Source: Haloferax volcanii DS2 | GTDB taxonomy: Archaea > Halobacteriota > Halobacteria > Halobacteriales > Haloferacaceae | Assembly (NCBI RefSeq): GCF_000025685.1 | Contig: NC_013966.1 | Location: 120,001 to 152,000 of the forward strand | Reading direction: 5' to 3' | DNA: 32,000 bases | Shown here: positions 8,626 through 31,816 of the stretch, one piece after another | Numbering within the stretch: position 1 is the stretch's first letter | Layout of the letters: each line of letters begins with the position of its first letter | Made by a program: the position numbers and the translations under genes | The notes under the pieces: generated by a model | Databases searched by the model: none | What the model saw: the letters and a program-made list of their open reading frames with translations, nothing else | Told to the model about the DNA's origin: nothing

Positions 8626-8772
8626 TCACTCACAACGCAGATCGACGCAGTGGACGACGCTGGCAAGTTCGTCGAGGCTCATCTGTGACCACTTGTAGCG
8701 TTTTTCTCTCGTCTCGTTCTCTGAAGACGTGTCTTCAGTCTCTAAACCCTGGGAGTCAACTTCCGAATTCAC
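8626..8772 (-). pseudogene. N-terminal remnant of a second, related tyrosine integrase
   Basis: Own translation: (GTG)NSEVDSQGLETEDTSSENETREKRYKWSQMSLDELASVVHCVDLRCE*. ETREKRYKWSQMSLDELASVV parallels ETRSRRYNWSRMDLDELVDVY of the intact integrase. Similarity is lost after about codon 40. Confidence 0.6.
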
Positions 8773-8982: not shown

Positions 8983-9200
8983 CCACAGTTTCGGAGGATG
9001 GGTTCTGTTGCGTGCCTTATTTTCACGTCAATTGAGTTTGATTAGGCTCTCGTCTATCGGTTTTCGAATTTAGTATGGTGAGAGACTTTGGAAAGATTTT
9101 CTGAGTGATATGAAATACAAATCGACAGACTGCTCCTATTTCACAGCTACGAGCGAAGAATAGAAGGCACGCAACACTTCCATCCTCCGAGGTTGTGTGG
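8983..9200. mobile_element. MITE-like element (218 bp) with ~35-bp imperfect terminal inverted repeats
   Basis: Left arm ccacagtttcggaggatgggttctgttgcgtgcct (8983-9017); right arm aggcacgcaacacttccatcctccgaggttgtgtgg (9165-9200). The interior is AT-rich. ORF 9023..9277 inside and across it is probably spurious. Confidence 0.5.
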
Positions 9201-9222
9201 AACCCCACAGTTTCGGGGGAGG

Positions 9223-9347
9223 GGCTCTGTTGAAACCCCCTTTCCGTCTGGCGACTTGTTGAGAGACTAGTTTTCACTGTGACCCACGGAAACTAGCCAG
9301 AAAGAGCGCTCCCTCCAATGTCAACGCTGAAGGATTTCAACAGAGCC
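9223..9347 (+). mobile_element. 125-bp MITE, copy A
   Basis: Terminal inverted repeats ggctctgttgaaacc and ggatttcaacagagcc. It is near-identical over its full length to copy B at 9837-9961, with about 10 substitutions by eye. Confidence 0.7.
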
Positions 9348-9485
9348 GGAGGAGATTATTTTTGCGTTTTTCTAGGGCTTTTCGTGGTTCGGGCAGGCCA
9401 TATCGGTGTCGCATCAACTACCGCCCTCGGTGAGGATGGAGTATGGGCGTTAATTTTAATACAATTAACTGAGTGTCGTTATAAT

Positions 9486-9731
9486 ATGGATACCCCTCCA
9501 AGAGACTTCATGCTTGGGCGGTCTAGTGCATGGTCTAGTAAGTTTGAATTGTTGGCTGTTTCGCTACTTGGTCTTGCCATCTCTGCAGTATTATTAGGTT
9601 TTTTTGACATTGCCTCACCAAACTCAATTGTTAAACTGCTCTATTTCCTAATTACCTACTTGTCACTATTTAGCATATCCATATTTACTACATACTTCGT
9701 GGCATATCAATTCGGCATTGGACGTAAATGA
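9486..9731 (+). CDS. Small two-TM membrane protein (81 aa), hypothetical
   Basis: An internal ATG of ORF 9318..9731; the ORF-track start lies inside MITE A and is unlikely to be real. MDTPPRDFMLGRSSAWSSKFELLAVSLLGLAISAVLLGFF...LLYFLITYLSLFSISIFTTYFVAY shows two hydrophobic helices. Low-GC codon usage. Confidence 0.4.
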   Translation: MDTPPRDFMLGRSSAWSSKFELLAVSLLGLAISAVLLGFFDIASPNSIVKLLYFLITYLSLFSISIFTTYFVAYQFGIGRK

Positions 9732-9836
9732 TAAACATCGAATTGTTATAAGATTGTACATTTGGTACTGTCCAAGACCAGCAAATCCGTGTCGCGGGAT
9801 TCTGCTCGCGAATCGTTTCGAGACACTCGAAAATCT

Positions 9837-9961
9837 GGCTCTGTTGAAACCCTCTTTCCGTCTTGCGATTTGTTGCGAGACTAGTTTTTACTGTGATCCA
9901 CGGAAACTAGCCAGAAGGAGCGCTCTCTCCAATGTCAACGCTGAAGGATTTCAACAGAGCC
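9837..9961 (+). mobile_element. 125-bp MITE, copy B
   Basis: Same termini (ggctctgttgaaacc and ggatttcaacagagcc) and same orientation as copy A. Confidence 0.7.
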
Positions 9962-10086
9962 AAAATCTATTCTTTCGTCTGATTCTCTGGGAAGTTCACC
10001 ACGTTTTGACCGTTGAGTGCGTGAAATCTGACCGCTAGTTCGTCAATCAGAACCAGCAGTCGTTCAATATGCGGATGATCGACGTG

Positions 10087-10401
10087 TCACAGGCTGGTCG
10101 AATTGTCCCATAGTTGGGGATGTGACACGTCAAAAAACCGACGACGTATCACCGTCCCCACCGTCCATTCGAACATCGTCGTCAACTGTCCACCGTCATT
10201 TAGACGCGAGAGACGTCTCGGATGCAGAATCGAGTAGGATAACCCGAGGTTCCGCAAGACTGTACTGAAATCGTCCAGATGGTACTGGACGTTAAACTCC
10301 TCGTTGAGTAGATGTTGCATCTCCTGTGATTTCCACGACTGGCCATCGCGGAGGAGTTCGAGCAGTTGGTTGAGCTATTCTTCGGTAAGATACCAAGCCA
10401 T
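10087..10401 (-). pseudogene. IS630-family transposase remnant (in-frame stop, internal deletion, truncated)
   Basis: Own translation from the ATG at 10401: MAWYLTEE*LNQLLELLRDGQSWKSQEMQHLLNEEFNVQYHLDDFSTVLRNLGLSYSILHPRR... This is the HTH part typical of IS630 transposases. It then jumps to GTVIRRRFFDVSHPQLWDNS, which resembles the first-Asp region (g.FfDes.pq). Only about 100 codons remain. Confidence 0.5.
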
Positions 10402-10649
10402 ATCTGTCTCACGATCTTTGCTTATTGGTCACCTCTAACGCTCTAGCCCCAAACTTCTCTCAAGTACTATTGAGGCTGATATCGACGAGGATATTAGGGA
10501 TTTCACTCAGCAGATCGATACATTTCAGTACGACTCATTGAGATAGACCCAGAGACAGTGCAACGATACGTGGGCGTAGTCAACAAATCTGCACCCTCTT
10601 GGGGACAGCGACTTGCTTCGGCCACCAACTACATTTTAGCAAACATGAT

Positions 10650-10707
10650 GGCTTTGCCCGTGGAGCGGGAGTCTTCGACATGGAACATCGCCGATCTCCC
10701 GCTTCAC
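10650..10707 (+). repeat. Orphan fragment resembling the 5' end of the IS5-like element at 11889-11962
   Basis: ggctttgcccgt, gagcgggag and atctcccgcttcac parallel ggctttgaccgt, gaagcgggaaat and atctcccgcttcac. The 14-nt atctcccgcttcac is exact at 10694-10707 and 11949-11962. Confidence 0.35.
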
Positions 10708-10758
10708 CTTCTTACTACTCGAAACCGGCGCCGTGATTCACTAGAGCCCTCAAGTTAA

Positions 10759-11637
10759 TTAGATTGTATCCAGTGCAAGTACGTGGTTGCCGGCATCAAC
10801 GTCTACCTGATACATCTTACCCTTGTCCATTGTGGTCCAAGTTCCGCTCCCGAAGATAATCATCTGTGGCGCACAGTGACCTGCTCCACACAAGTCAAAG
10901 TCGTATGCCCCGAAAGTAAGGATATTTGAATCTTTGAGATGGTCCCAAGCGTACCCAGCAAGGGCACCAACGACTGCGCCCCCAAACGCTGTCGCAATAG
11001 CGCCAACTCCACTAAATGAACCTGCAATTAGTCCACTAGCTGTTCCAATGAGTCCCCCGATCGCTACTTTAGTTAAAGTATTGATATCGTCATAATACTC
11101 AACCGATGCACCAACAATTTGATGCCTACCATAACCAGAGTAGACATTACAACTCTGATTTTGATCTCCTTTGTAAACGCTAAACCGGCTGATTGTCTTG
11201 GCCACCCCGTCACTGACTTCCTCAATGAGGTCGTCCCACGCCGACTTCTCCTCGAAATTTTGGACACCAATTGTGTTGGTCTTTTCGACCGTATCCGTTT
11301 TAGTTCCGTAAACCTTCACCGATTCCACGCTCATCTCAACTCCCGATTCCGCGCTCATTTGGGATTGAGTCGCTTTTGCGTTTTCCTTTTTCACCGTTGC
11401 GACTAATTCACTTACCTCTCCCGTTTCTGTATTCTTGGCGCGTGCGAAACTGTAGACCGTATCATCGATAACAGCGTGTTTTTTATCCTCAAGTTCAATC
11501 GGAGCGGGATCTATCGAGGAATCAGAACTCTTTTCACTACCGTGTTTTTGAGCTGAAACGATTCCAGTCGTTGACGAAACGCCGATTGCTGTACCTGCAA
11601 TGCCGAGGAACTGGCGTCGATTAGGCTTTTTCACCAT
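10759..11637 (-). CDS. Tat-signal secreted protein with a glycine-zipper hydrophobic segment (function unknown; candidate halocin-like or membrane-active toxin)
   Basis: 292 aa. The twin-arginine motif NRRQFLGIAGTAIGV is followed by VSAQ. Residues 191-229 (VAIGGLIGTASGLIAGSFSGVGAIATAFGGAVVGALAGY, nt 10951-11067) form a run of GxxxG/AxxxG repeats. The C-terminal ~60 aa contain CGAGHC. The gene is clearly lower in G+C than the flanking high-GC genes. Confidence 0.75.
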   Translation of the reverse strand: MVKKPNRRQFLGIAGTAIGVSSTTGIVSAQKHGSEKSSDSSIDPAPIELEDKKHAVIDDTVYSFARAKNTETGEVSELVATVKKENAKATQSQMSAESGVEMSVESVKVYGTKTDTVEKTNTIGVQNFEEKSAWDDLIEEVSDGVAKTISRFSVYKGDQNQSCNVYSGYGRHQIVGASVEYYDDINTLTKVAIGGLIGTASGLIAGSFSGVGAIATAFGGAVVGALAGYAWDHLKDSNILTFGAYDFDLCGAGHCAPQMIIFGSGTWTTMDKGKMYQVDVDAGNHVLALDTI

Positions 11638-11939
11638 TACATTCCTAAATGTAATTGGTCTAACTTATACTCTTTGATTTGTTTTTCGTATGTCACTACT
11701 AGTTAGCACCTTCACCAGTTTCAACTGAACTTTGTAAACATGAATTGAGGTGAACGGCCGTACTGGGGCAAGCCTTGAACGAAGGGACTCTTCGCGTGGT
11801 TATTCCATCACAAAATGGACTCAACATCAGCATTCGACAGGCAATGATTTTTCAAACTGCTTGGCTTTGTGAATCACTATACGGCGTCGGCTTTGACCGT
11901 TAGAACTTGGAAGATGAAGCGGGAAATCGGCGATGATCT

Positions 11940-12671
11940 ATGTCGAAAATCTCCCGCTTCACGAAGAAAGCGGTCACGTTAGCTAAAAATGTTGTTGGTG
12001 GCCGAGGCGAAGTCGCCGCCCCCGAGGAGGGTGGCGGCTTCGCCGACTACGCTCTCCTGTCGCTACACTGTCTGCGGATTTACCTCGATGAGTCGTACTG
12101 CAACGCCCTCGATCTGCTGAGCGAAATGCCGCATATTTGTGGGGAGATCGGCCTCGCAGAGAGCGATCTCCCTGATCACTCAACGCTAGTTAAGGCGTTT
12201 AACAGGTTTCAGATGAAGGTCTGTCGAGTGCTGCTCCGACTCTCGTCGGAGCTGCACGACCTCTCGGGTCACGCCGCCATTGATGCCACCTTTTTCGACC
12301 GCGAAAACGCTAGCAAGCATTACTGCCGTCGCACGAATCACCGCGTTCAGACACTCAAAGCGACGGCTCTCGTCGATACAGAATCTCAAGCTGTTCTTGA
12401 TGTTCATTGTGCGACCGAGAAAACCCACGACATGCCCCCGAAGAGCGAGGGCCAATTCTCAACAGTTTGCGGATGTTCCTCGAAACGTGTCCGACGACGG
12501 GTGGCGACATTTAACTTAGTGAAGAAGTCGTCGAGTCGTGTTGTAGTTCTCACAGAGTCATTGCGGTCAGTTGTGAGGAGTCTGGTGAACGTCTTTTCGA
12601 ACACCCACTTCCGGATTCGGAGTAGTGTTTTAGGGATTACCCCAACACATTTCGGTTTTCGCTCGGCTTAG
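11940..12671 (+). pseudogene. Truncated or degenerate IS5/IS4-superfamily (ISH-type) DDE transposase
   Basis: The first ~170 aa look genuine (PDHSTLVKAFNRF..., GHAAIDATFFDRENASKHYCRRTNHRVQTLKATALVDTESQAVLDVHCATEKTHD, i.e. the first-Asp region). The remaining ~70 aa are low-complexity and unlike a transposase. The second Asp and the Glu region are missing. Confidence 0.6.
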
Positions 12672-13405
12672 AGCGCCAACTACCACAACCTCAGGGGATG
12701 GTTTGATGCGTGACGTTCAGTGATTGGTTGTGTGATCTAACACCGAAGCTAGTAGCAGACAAGTGCCACAGAACTGAGTAACACCCTTAGACTCGATAGA
12801 TACTCGGGAATAATTCTCTGATCGTATAGCTACCGAGACTTGGCATCTAATAATCAAGTCTGAGGTACAGTTACAACATTACTACCGTCATAGAATATGC
12901 GTGGTATAGTACAATATATAATATGTTGACACTTGGAACCAGGTCATATCTCCAAGACACAATTCTAATTTACTAACAATACTACCTAGTTGCTTAATTG
13001 ATAAATCCGTTCGGTCATGAGCGTAAATAACTGTATCACACAGTCAGGTCTCGTCACACCTCAGATATAATTGATAGAAAGAATCTTATTTACAATATAT
13101 TTGTACAGAGATCCCACTTATTTAGTTGTATGCCTCGATTACCCATAGGAAAAATCACATCATTTGACTAGTCTGTTATCGGACAACAATCACGGCACAA
13201 AGTCACTATCTACCAGATTATAGTACGCATATTATACAATATTGCTGGCTCAGAGTGTGACTGCAGTTTCATTGAACGCAATCTGATTCACCTAAGCCGT
13301 CACAAAAACCGATAATTGCACTAGTCAATCTAACCGCTGCTATCCGAATAAGCGCTGGTGCTGCTGTCCAATACATTCAATACATCTTAGTACATCTAAT
13401 ATACT
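12672..13405. other. ORF-free AT-rich tract (~730 bp)
   Basis: The six-frame track shows no ORF of 60 aa or more. Sampled 60-nt lines are roughly 35-40% G+C by hand count. Short motifs recur: tatagtac (12906, 13220) and tacaatat (12910, 13091, 13235). Confidence 0.6.
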
Positions 13406-13768
13406 ATGCCCATCAGCGCGGATCGCTTCGAGACCATTGACGACGGCAATGAAAACCCAAAACCGGGGACGAACGCCTACAAGCTCCTCTCGTTCTTAGC
13501 TCAGAATGCTGACCAAGCGTTCACCCAAAGCGAGATCGCCGAGCGGACGTCCGTCAAGCCCGGCTCGGTTGGTCCGACTCTCGTCAGGCTCAGAGAACGA
13601 GGTCGTGTCGAGCACCGGGGGACATACTGGCGCGTGAGTGACCACGTCTTGAGCCTTGACGCTGCAGCTAACCATGCTGCTGCTACAGCAGCGAGCCGTG
13701 AAGAAGAACCATTCGACTACGACGAGTGGCAAGAACACGCCGTTGACCCGCGACAACAGCGTGACTGA
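13406..13768 (+). CDS. Winged-helix (MarR/ArsR-like) DNA-binding protein, putative antitoxin
   Basis: 120 aa. NAYKLLSFLAQNADQAFTQSEIAERTSVKPGSVGPTLVRLRERGRVEHRGTYWRV is a typical wHTH. The 3' end overlaps the next ORF by 8 nt. Confidence 0.7.
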   Translation: MPISADRFETIDDGNENPKPGTNAYKLLSFLAQNADQAFTQSEIAERTSVKPGSVGPTLVRLRERGRVEHRGTYWRVSDHVLSLDAAANHAAATAASREEEPFDYDEWQEHAVDPRQQRD

Positions 13769-14105
13769 CACCAACCGCTTCCAGAAGGGCGACGTATTCT
13801 GGGCACCGGATCCATTTCGACGCGGGTCAAATCCACGCCTCTGGGTCGTTCTTGCTGCAGACTCGCTCCCGTATCCTGGCGAGGAGTATCTGGGTGCAGC
13901 TCTCACAACCAGTAATCTCCCGCGAAACTTCGAAGTTGGAGATGAGTGGGTGAGCGGCAAAGACCCGGCCAAGACCTCGTATTGCTCTCCATGGGTCGTC
14001 GCGACAATCAAACATGACACCGTTGTCAATCCACAAGGACAAGTGACCGAGTCATTCGCCGACGAAATGATTGTAGCGTGCAAGCAGTATCTCGGCCCCC
14101 AGTAG
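13761..14105 (+). CDS. MazF/PemK-like toxin
   Basis: GTG at 13761, in frame with ORF 13656..14105 and overlapping the upstream stop (gtgactga). KGDVFWAPDPFRRG..RLWVVLA...ALTTS...SYCSPWVVATIKHDTV...G.V is the PemK/MazF SH3-like pattern. 114 aa. Confidence 0.7.
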   Translation: MTDTNRFQKGDVFWAPDPFRRGSNPRLWVVLAADSLPYPGEEYLGAALTTSNLPRNFEVGDEWVSGKDPAKTSYCSPWVVATIKHDTVVNPQGQVTESFADEMIVACKQYLGPQ

Positions 14106-14122: not shown

Positions 14123-15070
14123 TCACCTACGTGCTTCACACAACGTCTGGTAGTGCGTCCGAATTGTTTGAGTTGAGGTATCACTCACGGCCGCAACACG
14201 CGCCTGCGTGAGCGGCCAGTCCCGCTCAGTCGCAGCAGTGTACACACACGCTGCCGCGACTGCATGCGGATTCGCACCCCGATGAGCCCACTCATCGCTC
14301 GATGTCTCAGCTAACGACCGTGCTCGTCGTCGAACCTGGTCTGTCACATCAAGCGCATCTGCCACTCGCGGAACGAACTCGGCCGGTGCAACTGGCTTCG
14401 CAGACAGCCCGAGTTCTATATTGAGTGCGTTATACGCTGACCGGACACGCGATTCAGCCACCCGTGCGAGCGGGATGAGTTCAGCGAGCGTCCGCGAAAG
14501 CCCCGCACATCGACAGGCGGCGTGGACGCTCGCAGCCGCGACTGCTTCAATCGATCGTCCGGGCAACAGATCCGCCTGCTGAGCAGACCGGAAACACCGG
14601 CATGCTTGGTCACGCAGGCTGTCTGGGAGGTCGAGCGCACCGATGAGTCGCCGGACTTCGTCCAAGCCATGCGCGAGTCGACGTTCACGACTCGACTGGT
14701 ACCGACTCCGACTGTGCTGGGTGCGAAGTCGGGAGAGTTGCTGTCGTCTTTCGCCCGGGATCGGTGTCCCGTTCGCGTCGACGTGTCGGCCGATATTGGT
14801 CGCGAGGCCGTGGTCGTGTCGGGTCGGCGTTCGTGGTGCACCTACTCGCTTGCGCTCCTTGCGCTCGAACGACCGCCATTCGGGACCGTGGTCGATGCCG
14901 TGCCCGTCGATGATGAGCCCACACGACTGGCACCGTCGCTCACCAGCGTCCGTAATGACCTGGCCGCCACACTCCGGACAGGAGGCGGGTCCACAGGATT
15001 TCCCGCACGATTCGTCGAACTGTCGCTCGTAGACATCTCGTGTCGCCATCTCGAACACCGCGCGACGCAA
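14123..15070 (-). CDS. tfb: Transcription initiation factor IIB (TFB) paralog
   Basis: N-terminal zinc ribbon CPECGGQVITDAGERRCQSCG, then the B-linker (GPEWRSF...RVGAP) and two cyclin-like repeats. TTG at 15070; the more likely start is the ATG at 15049 (MATRDVYERQF). Confidence 0.9.
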   Translation of the reverse strand: MRRAVFEMATRDVYERQFDESCGKSCGPASCPECGGQVITDAGERRCQSCGLIIDGHGIDHGPEWRSFERKERKRVGAPRTPTRHDHGLATNIGRHVDANGTPIPGERRQQLSRLRTQHSRSRYQSSRERRLAHGLDEVRRLIGALDLPDSLRDQACRCFRSAQQADLLPGRSIEAVAAASVHAACRCAGLSRTLAELIPLARVAESRVRSAYNALNIELGLSAKPVAPAEFVPRVADALDVTDQVRRRARSLAETSSDEWAHRGANPHAVAAACVYTAATERDWPLTQARVAAVSDTSTQTIRTHYQTLCEARR

Positions 15071-15073
15071 TTT

Positions 15074-15106
15074 GGTGCGCCCCGCACCCGTCAGGGGCCA
15101 AAAAAC
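15074..15106 (-). promoter_or_regulatory. T-run plus GC-hairpin motif, copy 1 (upstream of tfb)
   Basis: Minus strand: tgttttttggcccctgacgggtgcggggcgcac. It lies 3 nt upstream of the TTG and 24 nt upstream of the ATG of tfb. Confidence 0.55.
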
Positions 15107-15431
15107 ACGGTTGCTGTCTCGAACAAGCAGGCTTCTCTTGGGGGGTCGTTAAATGACTGAACCACAACACCAAACAGGCTAGCAAGTGGATTATCGTTGC
15201 AGGCTCGTCGTGTCACATAAGACGCGCCCTGTTCTGCAACGGGTGCGGAATCGCGTACCAAGCCATCCGCGCTCGCCCCTTGATAACTCCCTCGTGGGCC
15301 TCGTGCCCACCGAGTTTCGTACACTCGACACTCAAGTTATTGGATATCTGTGGGTTGCGAGTCGCGGACTGTGTTAGTCGGAATTGCTCACCAAGCGAAC
15401 AGTTAACTGAAGCAACATATAACTGTCTTGT

Positions 15432-15617
15432 ATGAGTAGCTCACCATGGACTGCGAACTTCGCGACTGAAAAAAGCAAATGTGCAGCCGACGTCCAACGC
15501 CTCCTCGAGAAGTACCCGCAGCCGGTCGTCTACGAAGTCATGAGTGAACTGCTCCGCCGAGAGATGCGCGAGCAGTTTGCTGGTGCGTACGCTGCGTCCC
15601 AGCAGTCCGACGACTGA
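15432..15617 (+). CDS. Small hypothetical protein (61 aa)
   Basis: ATG-initiated ORF with acidic, helical-looking composition. It is convergent with the SWIM gene. I recognise no motif. Confidence 0.4.
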   Translation: MSSSPWTANFATEKSKCAADVQRLLEKYPQPVVYEVMSELLRREMREQFAGAYAASQQSDD

Positions 15618-15651
15618 CGAGTACTGGTGCGTACGAAACTCTCACCAACGA

Positions 15652-16059
15652 CTACTCAGACAGGTCACGCCGCCCAGCGTCAACGCAGTTCCAGCACGGG
15701 AGGTCCTCAGATAGCGGTTCACACTCACAGGGCAGGTCCGTTGTGCCATCATCGCCGCTCAATGAGCTACCACCGTCTGTGACGACGCGCATCTGGACCG
15801 CAAGTTCGAGTATTCGTGGGCGAATCGCGACCGCAACCCGGTGTTTACACGGATCGTCACCGCTCGCATCGGCGGGACACGAACACGACTCGGGCACGCC
15901 GTCCTGAATTCGAACGCGGTACTCGTGCACGTCCGGATCGGTATAGCTCTCGTTGCGTACACGGACATCGCCGTCGAGGAGTTCGAATGCAAACGCCTCG
16001 TACTGCGCTCGCTTGAGGACGCGCGTAGGTGGATCGAACTCTGGTAGTACTGGAGTCAT
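15652..16059 (-). CDS. SWIM zinc-finger protein
   Basis: CSCPADASGDDPCKHRVAV fits the SWIM CxCx(n)CxH signature, and the C-terminal CECEP...CWNC is a second Cys cluster. I prefer the ATG at 16059 (MTPVLPEF), because the ORF-track start at 16098 lies inside the conserved hairpin motif. Confidence 0.7.
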   Translation of the reverse strand: MTPVLPEFDPPTRVLKRAQYEAFAFELLDGDVRVRNESYTDPDVHEYRVRIQDGVPESCSCPADASGDDPCKHRVAVAIRPRILELAVQMRVVTDGGSSLSGDDGTTDLPCECEPLSEDLPCWNCVDAGRRDLSE

Positions 16060-16075
16060 GGTAGCCAGCGCGCAA

Positions 16076-16105
16076 TGCGCGCACCCCTTCGGGCGCATGA
16101 AAAAC
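16076..16105 (-). promoter_or_regulatory. T-run plus GC-hairpin motif, copy 2 (upstream of the SWIM gene)
   Basis: Minus strand: gtttttcatgcgcccgaaggggtgcgcgca. It lies 16 nt upstream of the ATG at 16059. Confidence 0.55.
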
Positions 16106-16232
16106 TACGCTGTCGAACGGAGTGACAGGTGACACAGAATCAGGTCGGATTCTTTGTGCTGTCCTGTCTTGATTGTCCTGCAGTCAATACAGGTGCGACA
16201 CCGACTAGGGGAGTTGCGACTGAAAGACGTAT

Positions 16233-16844
16233 TCAGAGTTGGCAGGGTCGCCCGAGTTCTTGTTCGTACTGCGATTTAATTTGCTCGAACAGGTCTTGGC
16301 CGAGTTCTGTCCGGAAGCGAGGCGCGGCGGTAGCAAAGAACTCGTCCAAGTTCTCGAACTCGGCAAAGTGGTCGTTCGTCTCGGCCTCGTCGTACCGACC
16401 TTGGCGCTCGTACTTGAGCGCCTGGAGACAATTATCGATCAGATCCATGTCCTTGACGAACTGTGCTGTCGGGGTGTCACGGGCTTCGTACTCTTCCCAG
16501 AGCGTCAGCAGTTCGGTGTCCGCGAACGGTCCGACGAGATCGGTTACTGCGCTCCGTTCAGCTGCTTCCTTTTCGGACGTGGGGATGGTCTGGCGTCCGT
16601 CTTCCGCGCGGGTTGCGATATCGCCCGTTCGAGCTTCGCCGAGGTCGTGAATGAGTGCCATCGTCACTGCTTTCTGAGGGTCAACGTCTTCCTGCTCGGC
16701 ATAGAGCAGACACAGCGACGCTGTCCCCCACGTGTGGGCCGCGACCGATTCAGGCGAGTCAATATTCCGAAGCACCCATCCCGTCCGAAGTTCGTCCTTC
16801 AACTCGAACCATTCGAGCAAGGAGTCGAGTTCGTTGGTCATCAT
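16233..16844 (-). CDS. HD-domain phosphohydrolase (YfbR-like 5'-deoxynucleotidase type)
   Basis: 203 aa with ESVAAHTW (His), ALIHDLGEARTGDI (HD) and VKDMDLID (Asp). This spacing is typical of HD_3/YfbR-like proteins. Confidence 0.85.
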   Translation of the reverse strand: MMTNELDSLLEWFELKDELRTGWVLRNIDSPESVAAHTWGTASLCLLYAEQEDVDPQKAVTMALIHDLGEARTGDIATRAEDGRQTIPTSEKEAAERSAVTDLVGPFADTELLTLWEEYEARDTPTAQFVKDMDLIDNCLQALKYERQGRYDEAETNDHFAEFENLDEFFATAAPRFRTELGQDLFEQIKSQYEQELGRPCQL

Positions 16845-17065
16845 ATCGTGGAGAAGGGAAGTGGCCAGTTCAACTCATCGAGACTACTCCACCGGGGCAC
16901 CGACATTCAATCAATAAATCCCCAGAAACGGTGTGCCGAGCAATTCACCGCTGGACCTGCGAAAACATCACCCTGTGAAAAGTTCTATATACCCTGTTAC
17001 AGACAAAGCTACGTCTGATAAAGAGGTTCAACAGAGCAGCGACAACGAACCACAGATAAGAGATT

Positions 17066-18013
17066 TCAGACCGCGTCGAGTGTTGAGAGAATCTCTTCGG
17101 CCGTCCCGCTAACCCGACCCAGTCGCTCTTGCAGCACGTCTGTCTCCTCGCCCTGCCACGCCGCGAGATAGAACGCCGACCCCCTCGTATCTAAGCCGAG
17201 GTATCGACCAACGACGTACGCAACGGCCTCCGCTTCGACCTCGCGTTTCGCCCGCTCGGTTGCGTCAGTAATGTCGAAATGCAAAATCGCGTGGGCGTAC
17301 TCGTGGATGATCGTCGATGCGAGGTCTGCGCGATTCGGCCGATCCTTCACTTCCACGAGTGGGGTGAGATCCTGGACACTCCGCGACTGGCAGACGCCCT
17401 TCGCCTCCCCATGTCGCCACTCGTCGGGATCGACGATCCGGATGGTCACACCGAGGTCCGACGCGATGTTAGTGAGATCCTCGACGATCGTATCAGGATC
17501 ACCGGTCGCCGCTGTATCCAGCTCCGGGAGTGGCTCGCCCTCAGTCTGCGAAATGTCGAAGACTGGTGCTGGCTTGAAGCCCACGAGGCCCTCTGACCAT
17601 TCCTCGGGTGGTGTCTCGTCGTACTCACACTCGCTGTTGTCGTGATAGCTCGGTGCGTTCCCACACTCGGGGCATTGGGTCGTGATGATCGGCGCCCAAA
17701 TCCAGATCGCCGACTCGCCTTCCTGGACGTGTCGGTCGAACTCTGCTTGCCACGTCCGGTAGCCAGCAACCTTCGTCGCCGCAGGACACTGGAGGGTGAT
17801 GAGGAGTGTGTTGCGGTGGGAGTAGTCGTGGAACTGGCTCTGGACGTCCAGCCACGCTTGGAACTGCTCGCTCGCCCGAGCGTCGTCGACGTCGTCAGCG
17901 AGGTCAGCAAGCCACTGTTCGATCGTGCGATGCATTTCATCGTGTCGCGTGTCGGTCTCGTCGAACGACACCGACGGAGAACTCGTTGTTGCCATTGGTT
18001 TCAGTTCTAACAC
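17066..18013 (-). CDS. ArdC-like protein: N-terminal ssDNA-binding (DUF1738-type) domain plus C-terminal HExxH metalloprotease domain
   Basis: FHDYSHRNTLLITLQCPAATKVAGYRTWQAEFDRHVQEGESAIWIWAPI matches the ArdC-N pattern (YS..N.lLI..Q.p.At.vaG...W). IIHEYAHAILH is a zinc-protease motif. A CPECG...SEC zinc ribbon is inserted between the domains. GTG at 18013; an alternative ATG lies at 17995. Confidence 0.8.
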   Translation of the reverse strand: MLELKPMATTSSPSVSFDETDTRHDEMHRTIEQWLADLADDVDDARASEQFQAWLDVQSQFHDYSHRNTLLITLQCPAATKVAGYRTWQAEFDRHVQEGESAIWIWAPIITTQCPECGNAPSYHDNSECEYDETPPEEWSEGLVGFKPAPVFDISQTEGEPLPELDTAATGDPDTIVEDLTNIASDLGVTIRIVDPDEWRHGEAKGVCQSRSVQDLTPLVEVKDRPNRADLASTIIHEYAHAILHFDITDATERAKREVEAEAVAYVVGRYLGLDTRGSAFYLAAWQGEETDVLQERLGRVSGTAEEILSTLDAV

Positions 18014-18025
18014 GTCTCTCTAGGA

Positions 18026-18057
18026 CGCGCCGCACCCCTCTGGGGCGCACAAAAAAC
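18026..18057 (-). promoter_or_regulatory. T-run plus GC-hairpin motif, copy 3 (upstream of the ArdC-like gene)
   Basis: Minus strand: gttttttgtgcgccccagaggggtgcggcgcg. It lies 11 nt downstream of the previous gene's stop (18069) and 12 nt upstream of the GTG at 18013. Confidence 0.55.
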
Positions 18058-18068
18058 AGCGGGGCGAA

Positions 18069-18416
18069 CTACTGGTCGGTGTCCTCGCACTCGAGGCTCC
18101 GAAGGTACTGTCGACACTCGCCGAACAGGCCGCTTGCAGTCGATTCACCGGTTGTGAGGTGGCGAACCCACTCAATCGCCCAGCAGTACACGGGATCGGA
18201 CTCACCTGTGCCGTGGATGTACCACCAGCGAGCGGCTTTGAGCACAACGAGCGGATTCGTCGGCGGTTGTTCACTCAGAAGGTCCCACGAAATCGACTCG
18301 ATTTCATCGGGAACGTCGGCTCGGGTGAACTCCGAACGATGCACGAGGTCGAGGTCGACCGGAACCTGATCGATTGACACGTCTGACTCTGTTTGTTGGT
18401 GACTCATGGAAATCAC
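18069..18416 (-). CDS. Hypothetical protein (about 112-115 aa)
   Basis: An ORF in the same orientation and spacing as its neighbours, preceded by motif copy 4. GTG at 18416 or ATG at 18407. No recognisable domain. Confidence 0.55.
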   Translation of the reverse strand: MISMSHQQTESDVSIDQVPVDLDLVHRSEFTRADVPDEIESISWDLLSEQPPTNPLVVLKAARWWYIHGTGESDPVYCWAIEWVRHLTTGESTASGLFGECRQYLRSLECEDTDQ

Positions 18417-18436
18417 GTCACACGGACTGTGTCTTC

Positions 18437-18468
18437 AGCCCGCACCCATCTCGGGCGCAAAAAATCAC
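18437..18468 (-). promoter_or_regulatory. T-run plus GC-hairpin motif, copy 4
   Basis: Minus strand: gtgattttttgcgcccgagatgggtgcgggct. It lies 20 nt upstream of the GTG at 18416. Confidence 0.55.
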
Positions 18469-18505
18469 GACGGCGCGCTAGTACCGACGGGACTCTCGAC
18501 CGAGG

Positions 18506-18901
18506 CTATGCGAGATGCGATACCTCCTCGGGTTCGGAGTCGTCAGCGAACTCGTTGCGCTCGACTGGCGTCCAGTCTTCAGTCGTGGTTGGTGCCCACC
18601 AATCGACGTGGTAGTCACCCGGAGCACCGAGAATCTTAACTTGTGCTTCGTCGTCGGGAAGTGGCCGGCGAAGTTTCTCGTCGACGTGGAGATTCCACGT
18701 CGTCGTCGCGTCGAATGTGATGATGACCGCCTCATCGTAGCCACGCGACTCAGGCGCCTCACGGCACGTCACGCTGGTATTGCACTCTGTGCAGAACACT
18801 CCCTCAAACGGAATGTGCGTGAACGCTTCCGTGCCACACACCGGACACCACAAAAACTCGAACAGCGCCTCGTCGTGGCGGCACACACGCTCAAGACTCA
18901 T
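18506..18901 (-). CDS. Zinc-ribbon protein, hypothetical (131 aa)
   Basis: CPVCG...CTEC four-Cys ribbon near the N-terminus and an acidic C-terminus. ATG start. Confidence 0.6.
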   Translation of the reverse strand: MSLERVCRHDEALFEFLWCPVCGTEAFTHIPFEGVFCTECNTSVTCREAPESRGYDEAVIITFDATTTWNLHVDEKLRRPLPDDEAQVKILGAPGDYHVDWWAPTTTEDWTPVERNEFADDSEPEEVSHLA

Positions 18902-18984
18902 CAGATGCTCACCACCTTAGCGAGCATCGTGGGCAAGTGGTGGGGAAAACGAGACAACTCAGCTGCCAGCGTTGGAATCGACAT
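18901..18984 (-). CDS. 27-codon upstream ORF overlapping the start of 18506..18901 (TGATG)
   Basis: Own translation: MSIPTLAAELSRFPHHLPTMLAKVVSI*. It begins 6 nt downstream of motif copy 5. Very short, so speculative. Confidence 0.25.
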   Translation of the reverse strand: MSIPTLAAELSRFPHHLPTMLAKVVSI

Positions 18985-18990
18985 CTGTTA

Positions 18991-19026
18991 CTGCGCCTCC
19001 GCCCCTTCGGGCGGCGCAAAAACAAC
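18991..19026 (-). promoter_or_regulatory. T-run plus GC-hairpin motif, copy 5 (head of the leftward block)
   Basis: Minus strand: gttgtttttgcgccgcccgaaggggcggaggcgcag. Confidence 0.55.
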
Positions 19027-19121
19027 GCCGTAGTGTAGACCTGCTGAACGCTCAATAGTGCTGAATGAGACACATCAGAGGGGTTGCGAGCTCGTGAATA
19101 CAATCGTGGAAGTGGGAGGGT

Positions 19122-19323: not shown

Positions 19324-20767
19324 CCATGCGTTCTAGTTTAGCAGAGAATGCGGTCGCTGTTTGTTGATTAGATATCGTCGCAACTACCCGGTTGAAGAAC
19401 CCGGTGGATGATGTGTACTCACCACCGGACTCGGTAGTTGTTGACCGGATTCAAAGAGCGTTTCCCTCCGATGAGTTGCGCGAGCGCGCTCGCGCAACGA
19501 ATCTCATCGAGCGTGAGCGCAAGTTCGACATCGTTGCGCTGTTTTACACACTCACGTTTGGCTTCGCTGCTGGCTCAGACCGCTCTTTGCAGGCGTTTCT
19601 CGACCGCTACGTCGAGATGGCTGACTGCGATGAGCTCTCCTACGCGGCGTTTCACGACTGGTTCGAACCGGGGTTCGTTGCACTCCTCCGAGAGATTCTC
19701 GATGACGCCATCGAGAATCTCGATACCGGACGAACCGACTTGAACGGACGTCTCGAACGATTTCGAGACGTCCTCATTGCCGACGCGACCATCGTTTCGA
19801 TGTACCAGGACGCCGCTGATGTCTACGCAGCAACTGGCAAGGATCAAGCTGAACTGAAGCTCCACCTCACAGAGTCACTCTCGACGGGCCTTCCAACGCG
19901 ATTCCGCACAACCGACGGAACAACTCACGAACGGAGTCAGCTACCCACCGGTGAGTGGGTAGCTGACGCCCTCATCTTGCTTGATTTAGGCTTCTACGAC
20001 TTCTGGTTGTTCGACCGAATCGACCAGAACGGCGGGTGGTTCGTCTCCCGGGTGAAGGACAACGCGAACTTCGAGATCGTCGAAGAACTGCGAACGTGGC
20101 GAGGCAACAGCATTCCGCTGGAAGGAGAGTCGCTGCAGGCCGTCCTTGAGGACCTGCAGCGACAGGAAATCGACGTCCGCATCACGCTTTCATTCGAGCG
20201 CAAACGAGGGTCGGGCGCCAGCGCGACCCGGTCGTTCCGATTGGTCGGCCTGCGTAACAAGGAGAGCGAAGAGTACCATCTGTATCTGACGAATCTGGCG
20301 AGAGAGGACTACAGCGCGCCCGATATCGCGCAGCTCTATCGGGCGCGCTGGGAGGTCGAACTGCTGTTCAAGGAGCTGAAGTCGCGGTTCGGCTTGGACG
20401 AGATCAAGACGACCGACGGCTACATCATCGAGGCGCTGATCATCATGGCCGCAATTTCGTTGATGATGAGTCGTGTAATCGTGGATGAGTTACGGTCGCT
20501 CGAGGCAAGACAGCGAGAGGGCGAAGCCGCCGCAGACGCCGACTCGTCGGCGTCGCGGCTCCCTCGGCGTCGCTGTTCGCTCGCCGTGGAACGCCACGGT
20601 CATCTGATCCAGTTGTATCTCATGATCGAGTTGGGCTACGAACTGCCGGATTTGGACGAGCTGTTGCTGTGGGCGTCACGAAATCCAAATCCACACAGAG
20701 ATCGGTTACGTGAGCAGGTTGAACGAGGTGAGTTCGGCTTTGATCGCTACTAAACTAGAACGCATGG
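19324..20767 (+). mobile_element. IS4-family insertion sequence (1444 bp)
   Basis: Perfect 18-bp terminal inverted repeats: ccatgcgttctagtttag (19324-19341) and ctaaactagaacgcatgg (20750-20767). One transposase ORF. No flanking direct repeat is visible (..gtcgggg / aactacg..). Confidence 0.85.
19392..20753 (+). CDS. IS4-family DDE transposase
   Basis: 453 aa. VLIADATIV (Asp1), LLDLGFYDF (Asp2) and YRARWEVELLFKELKS (the Y-x2-R-x3-E-x6-K signature of IS4). TTG start. Confidence 0.9.
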   Translation: MKNPVDDVYSPPDSVVVDRIQRAFPSDELRERARATNLIERERKFDIVALFYTLTFGFAAGSDRSLQAFLDRYVEMADCDELSYAAFHDWFEPGFVALLREILDDAIENLDTGRTDLNGRLERFRDVLIADATIVSMYQDAADVYAATGKDQAELKLHLTESLSTGLPTRFRTTDGTTHERSQLPTGEWVADALILLDLGFYDFWLFDRIDQNGGWFVSRVKDNANFEIVEELRTWRGNSIPLEGESLQAVLEDLQRQEIDVRITLSFERKRGSGASATRSFRLVGLRNKESEEYHLYLTNLAREDYSAPDIAQLYRARWEVELLFKELKSRFGLDEIKTTDGYIIEALIIMAAISLMMSRVIVDELRSLEARQREGEAAADADSSASRLPRRRCSLAVERHGHLIQLYLMIELGYELPDLDELLLWASRNPNPHRDRLREQVERGEFGFDRY

Positions 20768-29084: not shown

Positions 29085-29249
29085 ATTCCTGCTCTTTCTC
29101 ACCGACTAGTCGGAATGGACGGCCCCGCGTGGGACTCCTCTACGTTCCTCTCGGTTGGGTTGACCCGACCGCCTTCGATGTCACTCGATTAGCGGAACGT
29201 CCATTTTGTTCATCCGCGAACGGGGTGCGGACACGTTGATAATCAAACT

Positions 29250-30650: not shown

Positions 30651-30803
30651 ATATTTGAAGAGTTGTGTTTATTCGATATTATTATATGATATTCCAGACA
30701 GTCTGTATCGCCTAATTATCGGACGTGAATCCGCATTTGGCAGTAGTATGATATTTGAGGGAATCAGGGGCCACGGCAGGACGGACAGAGAGGCGAACAC
30801 TCG

Positions 30804-31327: not shown

Positions 31328-31816
31328 TTACGCGTCCGCTTCCGCTTCCGTTTCCGCTTTCTTTTCGTGGACGTCGACGACAAGCACCGGGAGCCGCGTC
31401 CGCCGGAGGACGCGTTCGGTCACGCTCCCGAGGACGACCCGGGAGAGACCGGAGCGACCGTGCGAGCCCATCACGACGAGGTCGATGTCGTTGTCCTCGA
31501 CGAACTTCCTGATGGCTCGCGCCGGTTCGCCCGGGACGACGTGTTCGCGGACGGCCAGTCCGTGTTCGGCGGCGGCGGCGGCGACGTAGCCCGTGGCCGC
31601 GTCGGCCGCGTCCTTCACTTCGGGCATGTCGTCGAGGTGGCCCTGCCGGATGCGGTCGACCTGCTCCGTTCCCAGCGAGTAGCTTGTGGCGTCGACGTCG
31701 ACGACGTACAGCGCGTGGACCGTCGCGCCGTACTTCGAGGCGAGGTCGACCGCCTGTTCGACGGCGTACTCCGCCGCGTCGCTTCCGTCAGTCGGAACGA
31801 GGATGTGTTCGTACAT
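31328..31816 (-). CDS. Universal stress protein (UspA family)
   Basis: MYEHILVPTDGSDAA...LVVMGSHGRSGLSRVVLGSVTERVLRRTRLPVLVV is the canonical Usp ATP-binding motif G-2x-G-9x-G(S/T). Confidence 0.85.
   Translation of the reverse strand: MYEHILVPTDGSDAAEYAVEQAVDLASKYGATVHALYVVDVDATSYSLGTEQVDRIRQGHLDDMPEVKDAADAATGYVAAAAAEHGLAVREHVVPGEPARAIRKFVEDNDIDLVVMGSHGRSGLSRVVLGSVTERVLRRTRLPVLVVDVHEKKAETEAEADA

Follow-up and report, generated by a model that had tools for sequence, protein, structure and literature searches.

Why should five genes of one haloarchaeal gene block each be preceded by the same short element, a run of T followed by a GC-rich hairpin? The question is raised by a stretch of 32,000 nucleotides from Haloferax volcanii DS2 (the window), in which the motif occurs five times, each time on the minus strand and ahead of a gene. 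A sequence-only reading had placed them correctly, and their sequences were verified. The window carries a 5-kb remnant of the ArdC/TFB gene block known from T4SS-encoding haloarchaeal megaplasmids, a plasmid family that has TFIIB and ArdC-like genes among its core genes (PMC13532300). The gene block was not found in Halobacterium NRC-1; H. volcanii was also listed as lacking it, yet it is the source of the window. The genes concerned are:

14123..15049, minus strand: TFB (TFIIB) paralog gene, tfb (Pfam TFIIB 3.9e-35, Zn_Ribbon_TF 4.8e-11)
15652..16059, minus strand: SWIM zinc-finger gene (Pfam SWIM 7.7e-07)
16233..16844, minus strand: HD-domain hydrolase gene, inside the block (Pfam HD_3 2.6e-34)
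17066..17995, minus strand: ArdC-like/IrrE-type metallopeptidase gene (Pfam ArdcN 1.2e-04, Peptidase_M78 3.1e-04)
18069..18407, minus strand: 112-aa gene, no Pfam match
18506..18901, minus strand: DUF7567 zinc-ribbon gene (Pfam DUF7567 5.7e-69)
18901..18984, minus strand: 27-codon ORF, with its ATG 8 nt past the predicted transcription start site (TSS)

Homologues of the ArdC-like gene were found by tblastn on 1682 plasmids, the majority typed as conjugative or mobilizable, and the 112-aa gene is syntenic with ArdC in all related loci. The stop codon of the 27-codon ORF overlaps the DUF7567 start codon (TGATG), and its ATG is kept at the same offset in Haloferax orthologues. The HD gene is probably inserted cargo. 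It lacks the motif, as previously remarked, with no match to the covariance model described below and only an ordinary TTTATT box upstream, and it is missing between ArdC and SWIM in H. alexandrinus pBNX82-4.

The copies were scored with a covariance model (CM) seeded with 42 copies, 4 from the window and 38 from eight related loci, copy 5 being excluded. With filters off, the five window copies obtained at least 22.6 bits (individual scores below), including copy 5 although it was outside the seed, and the next match only 13.1 bits, which bears out the earlier statement that the window has no further copy. Three of the five copies (2, 3 and 5) also fit a loose pattern (T5, 0-6 nt, GCSSCC, 3-9 nt, GGSS), against 0.02 matches in shuffled sequences. 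The copies, with the T-run given as the T-box, are:

15073..15112, minus strand: copy 1, putative promoter of the tfb paralog, 31.2 bits; T-box 15105-15100, arm GCCCC 15098-15094, loop TGACGGGTGC 15093-15084, arm GGGGC 15083-15079; predicted TSS about 15077-15076; ATG 15049
16070..16109, minus strand: copy 2, putative promoter of the SWIM zinc-finger gene, 23.9 bits; T-box 16104-16100, arms ATGCGC 16098-16093 and GCGCAT 16080-16075, loop CCGAAGGGGTGC; predicted TSS about 16074; ATG 16059
18021..18060, minus strand: copy 3, putative promoter of the ArdC-like/IrrE gene, 36.8 bits; T-box 18056-18051, arms TGCGCC 18049-18044 and GGCGCG 18031-18026, loop CCAGAGGGGTGC; predicted TSS about 18025; ATG 17995
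18431..18470, minus strand: copy 4, putative promoter of the 112-aa gene, 31.6 bits; T-box 18464-18459, arms GCCCG 18456-18452 and CGGGC 18442-18438, loop AGATGGGTG; predicted TSS A18435; ATG 18407
18988..19027, minus strand: copy 5, putative promoter of the 27-codon ORF and the DUF7567 gene, 22.6 bits; T-box 19022-19018, arms GCGCC 19017-19013 and GGCGC 18997-18993, inner helix CCGCCC/GGGCGG; predicted TSS A18992; ATG 18984

The distance of 3-20 nt first given from motif to start codon had been counted to upstream GTG, TTG and ATG codons, one of which lies inside the motif; measured instead to the ATG starts given by the RefSeq annotation of the orthologues in H. gibbonsii, the gaps between hairpin and ATG are about 29, 15, 30, 30 and 8 nt for copies 1 to 5.

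The flanking arms vary from gene to gene yet stay Watson-Crick complementary (64 arm pairs, z = 13.9 against permutation), and this covariation is purely symmetric, with no strand bias. Orthologues of tfb also have the element upstream, with other arms (GTGCCCCT/AGGGGCAT and AGCCCCTC/GAGGGGCT); the Halobellus orthologue of copy 2 reads TTGCGC/GCGCAA, a compensatory change of the outer pair; ArdC orthologues of Haloarcula and Halogranum have TGCCCC/GGGGCA or GCCCCCG/CGGGGGC, and those of copy 4 GAGCCC/GGGCTC or CGGGCC/GGCTCG. In the family-wide helix, the paired arms lie further out and GGGTGC is in the loop. The consensus helix originally proposed, GCGCCC/GGGTGC with a G-T pair, does correspond to the minimum-free-energy fold of copies 2-4, but it is specific to Haloferax and is not the one conserved across the family. 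The argument that its G-U pair on the sense RNA favours an RNA-level role consequently fails, since GGGTGC is a loop in the family-wide helix and sense-strand G-T, when permitted inside that helix, adds no more to stem length than A-C, G-A or C-T do.

Across the family, the motif is a rigidly spaced unit of 31 bp: G-TTTTT(T), 3-5 nt, CCCC, n, GA, n, GGGTGC, GGGG and then an A-rich position. The CM matches align nearly gap-free, so that the spacing from box to GGGTGC is fixed. In orthologous copies T5-6 is swapped for TTTATC, TTTATT or TATTTAT, and a logo of 141 distinct copies displays no second AT-rich signal between -49 and the box, both of which support the initial suggestion that the T-run is a TATA-like element and that the GC element would fill the TATA-to-TSS interval. 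In archaeal promoters the TATA centre precedes the TSS by about 26-28 nt, and this geometry gains further support from an A-enriched position 27.5 nt past the box centre (position 36 of the logo, A/T = 0.70), from one gene class in which the ATG follows that position by about 5-9 nt, and from copies at putative promoters with no co-directional upstream gene, for example those of tfb. We infer that the T-box is the TATA box, that transcription would start 1-3 nt past the 3' arm, and that leaders would measure about 5-9 nt in that gene class and mostly 15-35 nt, with a peak at 25-29 nt, in the others.

The haloarchaeal promoter consensus is TTWT / CGAAA / -10 WW (PMC4983044). The motif resembles canonical haloarchaeal promoters in its T-rich box at TATA distance from an A-rich putative start and in a subset of genes with very short predicted leaders, but it lacks a CGAAA-type BRE, has a GC-rich GGGTGC-GGGG in place of the -10 WW, and its genes have predicted leaders of mostly 15-35 nt whereas 72% of H. 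volcanii mRNAs are leaderless (PMC4983044, PMC2151090). In the same logo no CGAAA-type element, the purine-rich BRE that directly precedes TATA, was found, positions -5 to +5 being G/C-rich with low information. The interval from -12 to -3, which corresponds to GGGTGC-GGGG, has an AT fraction of at most 0.17 at nine of ten positions, the exception being the conserved T of GGGTGC, and this GC-rich region of the motif has no AT-rich -10 'WW' element.

The distribution of the motif follows the block. In 824 kb of related DNA from 37 sources, the CM obtained 152 matches at E <= 0.1. Practically every one either sits on the strand of the gene block or immediately precedes a gene of the same orientation. 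Complete ArdC/TFB blocks have roughly 8-15 copies each, the conserved core preceding ArdC, tfb and 3-13 more genes per block; the motif is repeated before most block genes and nearly absent from the remaining plasmid. In a scan of the whole Halanaeroarchaeum plasmid pM27-SA2-01, the block yielded about 15 copies and the remaining 100 kb four or five family-like matches, while the T4SS operon had none. Of the 143 distinct copies, 129 are followed within 100 nt by an ORF that opens with ATG and has at least 50 codons; the commonest distances to the ATG are 25-29 nt, and another cluster falls at 5-9 nt. The signature recurs in many genera and seems undescribed.

With moderate confidence, based on these sequence comparisons, we interpret each copy as the core promoter of one gene in the 'establishment-type' ArdC/TFB block of widespread T4SS-encoding haloarchaeal megaplasmids, read by a plasmid factor. 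The T-box would serve as TATA box and the start would fall just beyond the 3' arm, while the conserved GC-rich interval, by replacing the usual AT-rich -10 'WW', would make these promoters depend on a plasmid-encoded factor and hence allow the block to be switched as one regulon. Plausibly, a plasmid regulator or the TFB paralog recognises the element, which may be its operator or binding site, the paralog being a candidate reader: TFB contacts were mapped in Pyrococcus at -16 to -20, -6 to -10 and -4 to -6 (PMC13502027), and these points fall on the motif's three conserved blocks. Alternatively, the factor could be a repressor that covers the stretch between TATA and TSS, a parallel being those bacterial conjugative plasmids in which establishment genes are briefly derepressed once the plasmid has been transferred. 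The archaeal repressors NrpR and MDR1 act in this manner, with a palindrome in the TATA-to-TSS interval that blocks RNAP recruitment, but the half-sites of such operators have conserved sequences, unlike the variable arms found here. The small proteins of the block had no Pfam DNA-binding domain and no repressor candidate emerged from them.

A precedent exists on the Bacillus plasmid p576, where an iterated motif in the promoters of ardC and other establishment genes is bound by an autoregulated repressor (PMC6294495). The likeness extends to the layout: a short conserved motif repeated at ardC (ardC576), at neighbouring establishment genes and at the regulatory gene forms one plasmid regulon, for which transient derepression after transfer was proposed (PMC6294495). 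Likewise, as in Reg576/ArdK-type control, one conserved sequence stands in several promoters of the haloarchaeal block, including that of a regulatory gene. The bacterial case differs by its sigma-type promoters and by a direct dual heptamer, TTATCCC, that is conserved in sequence and has no covarying palindrome; its repressor is an identified RHH protein, whereas the haloarchaeal motif has variable arms and a binding protein that is only putative (PMC6294495).

Besides the missing CGAAA-type BRE, three observations speak against the promoter/regulator model. By itself it gives no explanation for the complementarity of the arms, since a sequence-specific duplex-binding protein does not account for arms that vary while their pairing is kept. 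In genes with short leaders the 3' arm includes a GGAGG 6-11 nt ahead of the start codon, a placement that would be meaningful only in a transcribed arm. Moreover, related blocks harbor a separate operator-like element of conserved sequence, TTAACCAAC-N23-24-GTTGGTTAA, and the regulator's site may therefore be there rather than in the hairpin motif.

The retained complementarity would be accounted for if the element worked as an extruded hairpin, either as a cruciform extruded under supercoiling or as a hairpin on ssDNA that would arrive through a T4SS, and marked or activated the start site, allowing establishment genes to be expressed soon after the DNA enters. Such a structure-dependent promoter, comparable in archaea to the Frpo ssDNA promoters known from F-like plasmids or to the phage N4 hairpin promoters, appears unlikely to us. 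Watson-Crick covariation without strand bias is what a DNA structure would leave, the loop is conserved and asymmetric, the palindrome is centred at about -12 relative to the predicted TSS, one gene of the block is of the ArdC-like ssDNA-binding kind, and VirB4/VirD4-like ATPases are encoded on the plasmids, as is a primase, which closes the T4SS operon. However, the TATA-like box is 0-3 nt outside the stem in all copies, where in ssDNA it would be single-stranded and TBP cannot bind; the stems are short (5-9 bp), only copy 5 folds clearly better than shuffles (z = -3.5 as DNA, -4.0 as RNA) with the other four window copies no better, and conjugative ssDNA transfer of these plasmids is only presumed. 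The virion-RNAP promoters of phage N4 have a short hairpin near -12 with conserved bases and define the early promoters of the injected DNA, but they need their own single-subunit RNAP and, unlike the motif, have a 3-nt loop. ssDNA promoters are known from the leading regions of bacterial plasmids (PMC6294495), and Frpo shares with the motif a hairpin-forming DNA placed in a single orientation before early or anti-defence genes of a T4SS plasmid; it differs by a long hairpin that rebuilds -35 and -10 within the duplex (PMC9849209, PMC11541004). Were this reading true, these would be the first such promoters described for archaeal RNA polymerase. They would also correspond to the zygotically induced ssDNA promoters known from bacterial conjugative plasmids, and would speak indirectly for ssDNA transfer by these haloarchaeal megaplasmids. 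Transferred ssDNA is likewise the premise of a priming signal (ssi-like) for the plasmid primase, repeated for fast conversion of the block to duplex, to which we give the least credence. All copies share one orientation, and in related plasmids the last genes of the T4SS operon are those of a DNA primase and a primase-associated protein. Hairpins or templates containing GTG are recognised by AEP-type plasmid primases, RSF1010 RepB' and pRN1 ORF904 among them. The priming model leaves the fixed start-codon distance, the A-rich +1 and the TATA-like box variants unexplained, however, and presupposes a strand transfer that is hypothetical.

It is quite improbable that, in long transcripts, the U-run and hairpin serve to process or stabilise the RNA, to sequester an SD or, in the manner of nut/boxB, to signal antitermination. 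The genes are in tandem, with an upstream co-directional ORF ending within 300 nt of 117 of the 143 copies, the GGAGG has SD-like spacing in the short-leader class, and the GC stem with its purine-rich loop resembles boxB. Nevertheless, sense-strand G-U is not in excess over other mismatches, copies also stand at the promoters that open a block, which no transcript should reach from upstream, boxes of the TTTATC type do not form a run of U, and the rigid T-box spacing with an A-rich +1 fits the geometry of an initiation complex. Rfam gave no match at gathering threshold in the window. The earlier alternative of an oligo-T terminator of the preceding gene, in which the downstream GC-rich duplex merely reinforces pausing, is very unlikely as a main function since 47 of the 143 distinct copies have no T5 run; a secondary role of T5-6 versions, which may also end transcription of the preceding gene, is still conceivable because the box often lies 0-40 nt past the preceding stop codon. 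At least five consecutive T occur in 96 of the 143 copies, and, among the 117 copies that follow a co-directional ORF, 62 have their box at most 40 nt past its stop; archaeal RNAP terminates at T5-6 runs (PMC2253867). Against this stand the copies with no upstream gene, the lack of any copy behind the last gene in the blocks examined, and a conservation that reaches 25 nt beyond the T-run with a complementarity that terminators do not need. A terminator scan found no intrinsic-terminator-like site at the five motif positions because the order on the sense strand is T-run then hairpin, which reads hairpin then A-run on the other strand, whereas a bacterial-type intrinsic terminator has its U-run behind the GC-rich hairpin.

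An integron attC site was considered separately and rejected: the motif unit is about 22 bp and lacks core sites, whereas attC is an imperfect palindrome, 57-141 bp long, that marks cassette boundaries and has R''/R' core sites (RYYYAAC / GTTRRRY), and attC is also ruled out by a gene order that is syntenic across genera and by an HD insertion that is not bounded by the motif. The viral contigs searched contained no true motif copy. Halovirus HF2 differs from the motif by repeats of 29 or 58 bp with conserved sequence, for which a GC-rich TATA-to-TSS palindrome is not reported, and resembles it by a repeated intergenic sequence that carries an AT-rich promoter motif and keeps its position among relatives (PMC8707807).

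All five minus-strand sequences quoted in the sequence-only reading were found exactly in place when the minus strand between 14800 and 19300 was read and all T5+ runs of the window were listed. Each consists of a T-box and a conserved GC-rich palindrome, and together they precede tfb, the SWIM gene, the ArdC-like gene, a 112-aa gene and a 27-codon ORF followed by a DUF7567 gene. The 112-aa protein had no Pfam match, and Pfam assigned the other genes of this region as follows.

Genes assigned by Pfam
14123-15049, TFB paralog
15652-16059, SWIM zinc-finger protein
16233-16844 (-), HD hydrolase
17066-17995, ArdC-N/IrrE-type protein
18506-18901, DUF7567 zinc-ribbon protein

Motif copies in the window, all on the minus strand (TSS positions are geometry-based predictions only; arms are those of the family-wide helix)
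Copy 1, tfb: T-run start 15105, predicted TSS ~15077, ATG 15049 (-), arms GCCCC / GGGGC
Copy 2, SWIM gene: T-run start 16104, predicted TSS ~16074, ATG 16059 (-), arms ATGCGC / GCGCAT
Copy 3, ArdC-like gene: T-run start 18056, predicted TSS ~18025, ATG 17995 (-), arms TGCGCC / GGCGCG
Copy 4, 112-aa gene: T-run start 18464, predicted TSS ~18435, ATG 18407 (-), arms GCCCG / CGGGC
Copy 5, 27-codon ORF: T-run start 19022, predicted TSS ~18992, ATG 18984 (-), arms GCGCC / GGCGC

A loose pattern (T5, 0-6 nt, GCSSCC, 3-9 nt, GGSS) matched three of the five copies (2, 3 and 5), against 0.02 matches in dinucleotide-preserving shuffles. A covariance model (CM), R1, was seeded with 42 copies, four from the window and 38 from eight related loci, copy 5 being left outside the seed. 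In a scan of the complete window with its filters off, R1 scored the five copies at 36.8, 31.6, 31.2, 23.9 and 22.6 bits and everything else at 13.1 bits or less. The claims that the motif occurs nowhere else in the window and that the HD gene lacks it are thus confirmed, the latter gene having only an ordinary TTTATT box upstream. The HD gene is probably inserted cargo with its own TTTATT promoter, and it is missing between the ArdC and SWIM genes in the H. alexandrinus plasmid pBNX82-4. Rfam and tRNA scans of the window found nothing, and an intrinsic-terminator reading was discarded after a terminator-like scan gave no site at the motif.

The window DNA shares 89-91% identity with plasmids of Haloferax gibbonsii, H. 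alexandrinus and H. lucentense, and its ArdC region is ~70% identical to plasmids from more than 40 haloarchaeal genera, many of the related plasmids being of the MPF_T type in PLSDB. T4SS-encoding megaplasmids are common in Halobacteria, where a family of 133 relatives shares a core of Orc1/Cdc6, TFIIB, an ArdC-like protein and a VirB4/VirD4 T4SS cluster (2026 paper, PMC13532300); in reviews of these megaplasmids even the relaxase is unidentified (PMC12282955). In complete plasmids the ArdC and TFB genes lie within 20-25 co-directional, mostly uncharacterised genes beside orc1/cdc6. The block in the window is a 5-kb remnant, cut at a DDE transposase gene (19392-20753), with IS elements, an integrase and transporter genes around it. 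In a check for TSS data, the block was absent from H. volcanii and Halobacterium NRC-1, only the plasmids of strain R1 carrying it.

The motif precedes about 8-15 genes per block in plasmids of Haloarcula, Natrinema, Halanaeroarchaeum, Halobacterium, Halobellus, H. salinarum R1 and H. alexandrinus, and likewise lies upstream of syntenic genes in 26 further loci fetched via the ArdC protein. R1 retrieved 152 copies at E <= 0.1 in 824 kb from 37 sources, these E-values being rough owing to a short CM calibration. The scan of related plasmids proposed in the earlier reading placed essentially all copies on the block strand or directly upstream of a co-oriented gene, a non-block example being position 6389 of the related locus L005, just before a co-oriented gene starting at 6446. 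The complete 124-kb Halanaeroarchaeum plasmid holds ~15 copies in the block and 4-5 family-like matches in the other 100 kb, with no copy before its T4SS operon. When 2.9 million viral contigs were searched by pattern, five matches turned up, which we attribute to chance because all lack the T-box and score only 14-16 bits. Four copies crowded into 190 nt (9379-9565 in the related locus L012), with N bases between them, on the draft H. gibbonsii ATCC 33959 contig are probably an assembly artefact.

The R1 matches align nearly gap-free, and a logo was drawn from 141 distinct copies, numbered from the 5' end of the 40-nt match.

Logo of the motif
Positions 4-5, G / G(T)
Positions 6-10, TTTTT (T 72-91%)
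Positions 15-19, (G/C)CCCC
Positions 21-22, GA
Positions 24-29, GGGTGC (G 94-97% at 24, 25, 26 and 28)
Positions 30-33, GGG(G/C)
Position 36, A (A 44%, A+T 70%)

No further AT-rich position occurs in this logo from -49 to the box, and the T-box is the only AT-rich element upstream of motif genes. The proposal that the T-run is a TATA-like element is supported by orthologous copies that carry TTTATC, TTTATT, TATTTAT or TTTGTC in place of T5-6; these variants fit the haloarchaeal TATA consensus, TTWT (PMC4983044), and would not be tolerated by an oligo-U terminator. The proposal that the GC element fills the TATA-to-TSS interval also agrees with the geometry, since 27.5 nt from the centre of the box (positions 5-12) falls on the A-enriched position 36, the predicted TSS, just after the 3' arm. 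One class of genes has its ATG ~5-9 nt after position 36, with a box-to-ATG distance steady at 34-39 nt regardless of stem and loop lengths, which would be a very-short-leader geometry. For most other genes the start codon lies 15-35 nt past position 36 (peak at 25-29 nt), and a GGTGA Shine-Dalgarno (SD) sequence is seen at several of these longer-leader genes. An SD-like role for the GGGTG loop was rejected, as its spacing to the start codon is wrong and it lies upstream of the predicted TSS.

That the oligo-T acts solely as the terminator of the preceding gene is very unlikely. A co-directional ORF does end within 300 nt upstream of the box in 117 of 143 copies, with the box within 40 nt of its stop codon in 62 of the 117, and five to six T are enough for archaeal RNA polymerase in vitro (PMC2253867). 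However, 47 of the 143 distinct copies lack five consecutive T, good-stem copies stand at tfb promoters with no co-directional gene upstream, and the last gene of a block is never followed by a copy. Part of this earlier suggestion may survive, in that copies with T5-6 may also act as terminators in a secondary role. A priming signal is scarcely credible, and integron attC, oriT/nic and Xer/dif sites were ruled out by size, copy number and the variable arm sequence.

The helix originally described, GCGCCC/GGGTGC with a G-T pair, is indeed the minimum-energy fold of copies 2-4 (ViennaRNA), but it is not conserved outside Haloferax, and most family members cannot form it. The helix shared across the family is placed further out, with GGGTGC in the loop. 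Its arms vary from gene to gene: GCGCCGGC/GCCGGCGC, GAGCCTCC/GGAGGCTC, GTCGCCTC/GAGGCGAT, CCGGGC/GCCCGG, GTGCCCCT/AGGGGCAT, AGCCCCTC/GAGGGGCT and TCGCCCCG/CGGGGCGA were found at other genes, reversed polarity is also seen (GGGGCT/AGCCCC), and 128 distinct sequences hold 64 distinct arm pairs. Compensatory changes appear among orthologous promoters of ArdC (TGCGCC/GGCGCG vs TGCCCC/GGGGCA vs GCCCCCG/CGGGGGC), SWIM (ATGCGC/GCGCAT vs TTGCGC/GCGCAA) and 112-aa genes (GCCCG/CGGGC vs GAGCCC/GGGCTC).

The complementarity of the arms is real. When copies were picked by T-box and GGGTG alone, ignoring pairing, and their 3' halves were permuted among copies, the best Watson-Crick stem averaged 4.25 bp against 2.90 +/- 0.11 permuted, and stems of at least 5 bp occurred in 48% of copies against 14%. 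Among CM matches the mean stem was 5.70 against 4.46 +/- 0.09 (z = 13.9); since copies are related by descent, such z-scores overstate the number of independent events, and about 17 clearly different helices is a safer count. Fixed-register pair counting on MAFFT and CM alignments gave 61.6% of cells paired, a signal blurred because copies differ by 1 nt in register, and covariation scores above all 500 shuffles (0.270 vs 0.171 and 0.231 vs 0.160); the register-free permutation tests are the more informative. The effect amounts to about one base pair beyond what the shared CCCC...GGGG core gives. In the window, four of the five hairpins fold no better than shuffled sequence, and copy 5 is the only clear folder (z = -3.5 to -4.0).

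A G-T pair on the sense strand had been taken to favour a role in RNA, provided that the stem is transcribed. This argument fails, as the stems carry no strand-specific wobble signature: allowing internal mismatches gave mean stems of 5.91 bp for G-T, 5.80 for A-C (the G-T of the opposite strand), 6.04 for G-A and 5.92 for C-T (all z between 9.8 and 13.1, for copies related by descent), and internal G-T was absent from the family-like stems in a curated scan. The symmetric Watson-Crick helix suits a duplex-DNA palindrome, or a DNA hairpin on either strand, at least as well as RNA. The rigid T-box spacing, the predicted TSS past the 3' arm and the presence of the motif at the first promoters of blocks also weigh against an RNA-level element, which we consider improbable.

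In the class with the ATG 4-9 nt past the hairpin (for example 11928-11967, 15890-15929 and 342-381 in the related loci L004, L007 and L015, and also window copy 5), CCTCC occurs in the 5' arm and GGAGG or GAGG in the 3' arm, 6-11 nt ahead of the start codon, a pattern that resembles an SD-sequestering hairpin and may reflect shared descent, many of these genes being paralogues (N-terminus MSN...). The 27-codon ORF (18901-18984, minus strand) begins 8 nt past the TSS predicted for copy 5 and ends in a stop codon that overlaps the start of the DUF7567 gene (TGATG); the ATG offset is conserved in Haloferax orthologues, and in Halanaeroarchaeum the DUF7567 gene lacks a leader ORF and carries a motif copy of its own.

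The best-supported model, and probably the right one, is that the motif is a regulon promoter read by a plasmid factor. A dedicated core promoter would serve the plasmid regulon, its GC-rich interval standing where ordinary haloarchaeal promoters have an AT-rich -10 'WW' element (PMC4983044), and such a promoter should open poorly unless helped. Contacts of TFB known from recent cross-link mapping in Pyrococcus (PMC13502027) can be set beside the motif.

TFB contacts and motif blocks
TFB core domain, contacts -16 to -20: CCCC, -20 to -17
B-reader / B-linker on the transcribed strand, contacts -6 to -10: GGGTGC, -12 to -7
B-linker on the non-transcribed strand, contacts -4 to -6: GGGG, -6 to -3

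The plasmid family always has its own TFB paralog (PMC13532300), the promoter of the paralog gene itself carries the motif (copy 1), and some members also encode TBP; from these we infer, as a concrete hypothesis, that the paralog would read a paralog-specific extended core promoter. Within the same model, a repressor could instead occlude the TATA-to-TSS interval. A bacterial precedent is Reg576 of plasmid p576, which binds an iterated motif in promoters of ardC, other establishment genes and its own gene, and is proposed thereby to let these genes be expressed transiently after transfer (PMC6294495). A Pfam search of ten small block proteins for a regulator found no DNA-binding domain. Neither version explains why the arms vary with complementarity kept. 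A structure-dependent promoter, formed as a cruciform or ssDNA hairpin by analogy with Frpo or phage N4 promoters, accounts for exactly this, but must still explain the use of a TATA box outside the stem, and we regard it as rather unlikely.

Related blocks contain a second intergenic element, an inverted pair TTAACCAAC-N23-24-GTTGGTTAA in which the 9-bp half-sites are conserved and the spacer is not. It lies, for example, at 8725-8766, 16417-16458 and 3900-3940 in L004, 14863-14904 and 17755-17796 in L005, 23098-23139 in L006, 18368-18408 in L007 and 31364-31404 in the Halanaeroarchaeum plasmid (L036), often just upstream of, or abutting, a T-box promoter; as a pair it is absent from the window. 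This second element resembles a genuine protein operator, and in related blocks the regulator may bind there.

Literature searches by sequence strings, block DUF names and topic retrieved no description of the motif, and the plasmid-family paper (PMC13532300) does not mention a repeated intergenic motif. In concept the motif is related to operators iterated among establishment-gene promoters, to the ssDNA promoters found in leading regions and to the intergenic repeat promoters of halovirus HF2 (PMC8707807). It can be read as a promoter signature iterated through a mobile-element regulon, unusual in combining a conserved asymmetric core with a covarying palindrome inside an archaeal core promoter, which poses a mechanistic question beyond current archaeal initiation models. 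As a single easily recognised cis-element, it would mark the ArdC/TFB block as one regulon and offers a concrete target for asking whether plasmid TFB/TBP paralogs direct their own promoters. The 40-bp unit is tractable for Haloferax reporter and footprinting work, and can serve as an annotation marker for plasmid remnants such as that in the window.

Several other features accompany the block. Between the SWIM and tfb genes, on the opposite strand, a 61-aa ORF (15432-15617, plus strand) has no Pfam match, and a hypothetical protein is annotated at the equivalent place in H. gibbonsii and H. alexandrinus plasmids. On its tfb side the block adjoins a stretch (9000-14000) with a G+C of 0.45-0.50, against 0.55-0.65 elsewhere, many T-runs and a truncated DDE transposase ORF (11940-12671). 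Much of the window lies between two copies of a 1.4-kb repeat, probably an IS element (1462-2862 and 29249-30652; 95.6% identical), each with a ~390-aa ORF lacking a Pfam match. An unusual cargo pairing is that of a class I Trp/Tyr tRNA-synthetase-like gene (4758-5963, plus strand) with a neighbouring tyrosine-recombinase (phage integrase family) gene (2883-4166, minus strand). Genes for a DNA primase and a 'primase-associated protein' close the T4SS operon of the Halanaeroarchaeum plasmid (16897-19304 in L036), recalling the transferred primases of some bacterial conjugative plasmids, and the same gene pair recurs at the edge of the H. alexandrinus locus (1-2267 in L008).
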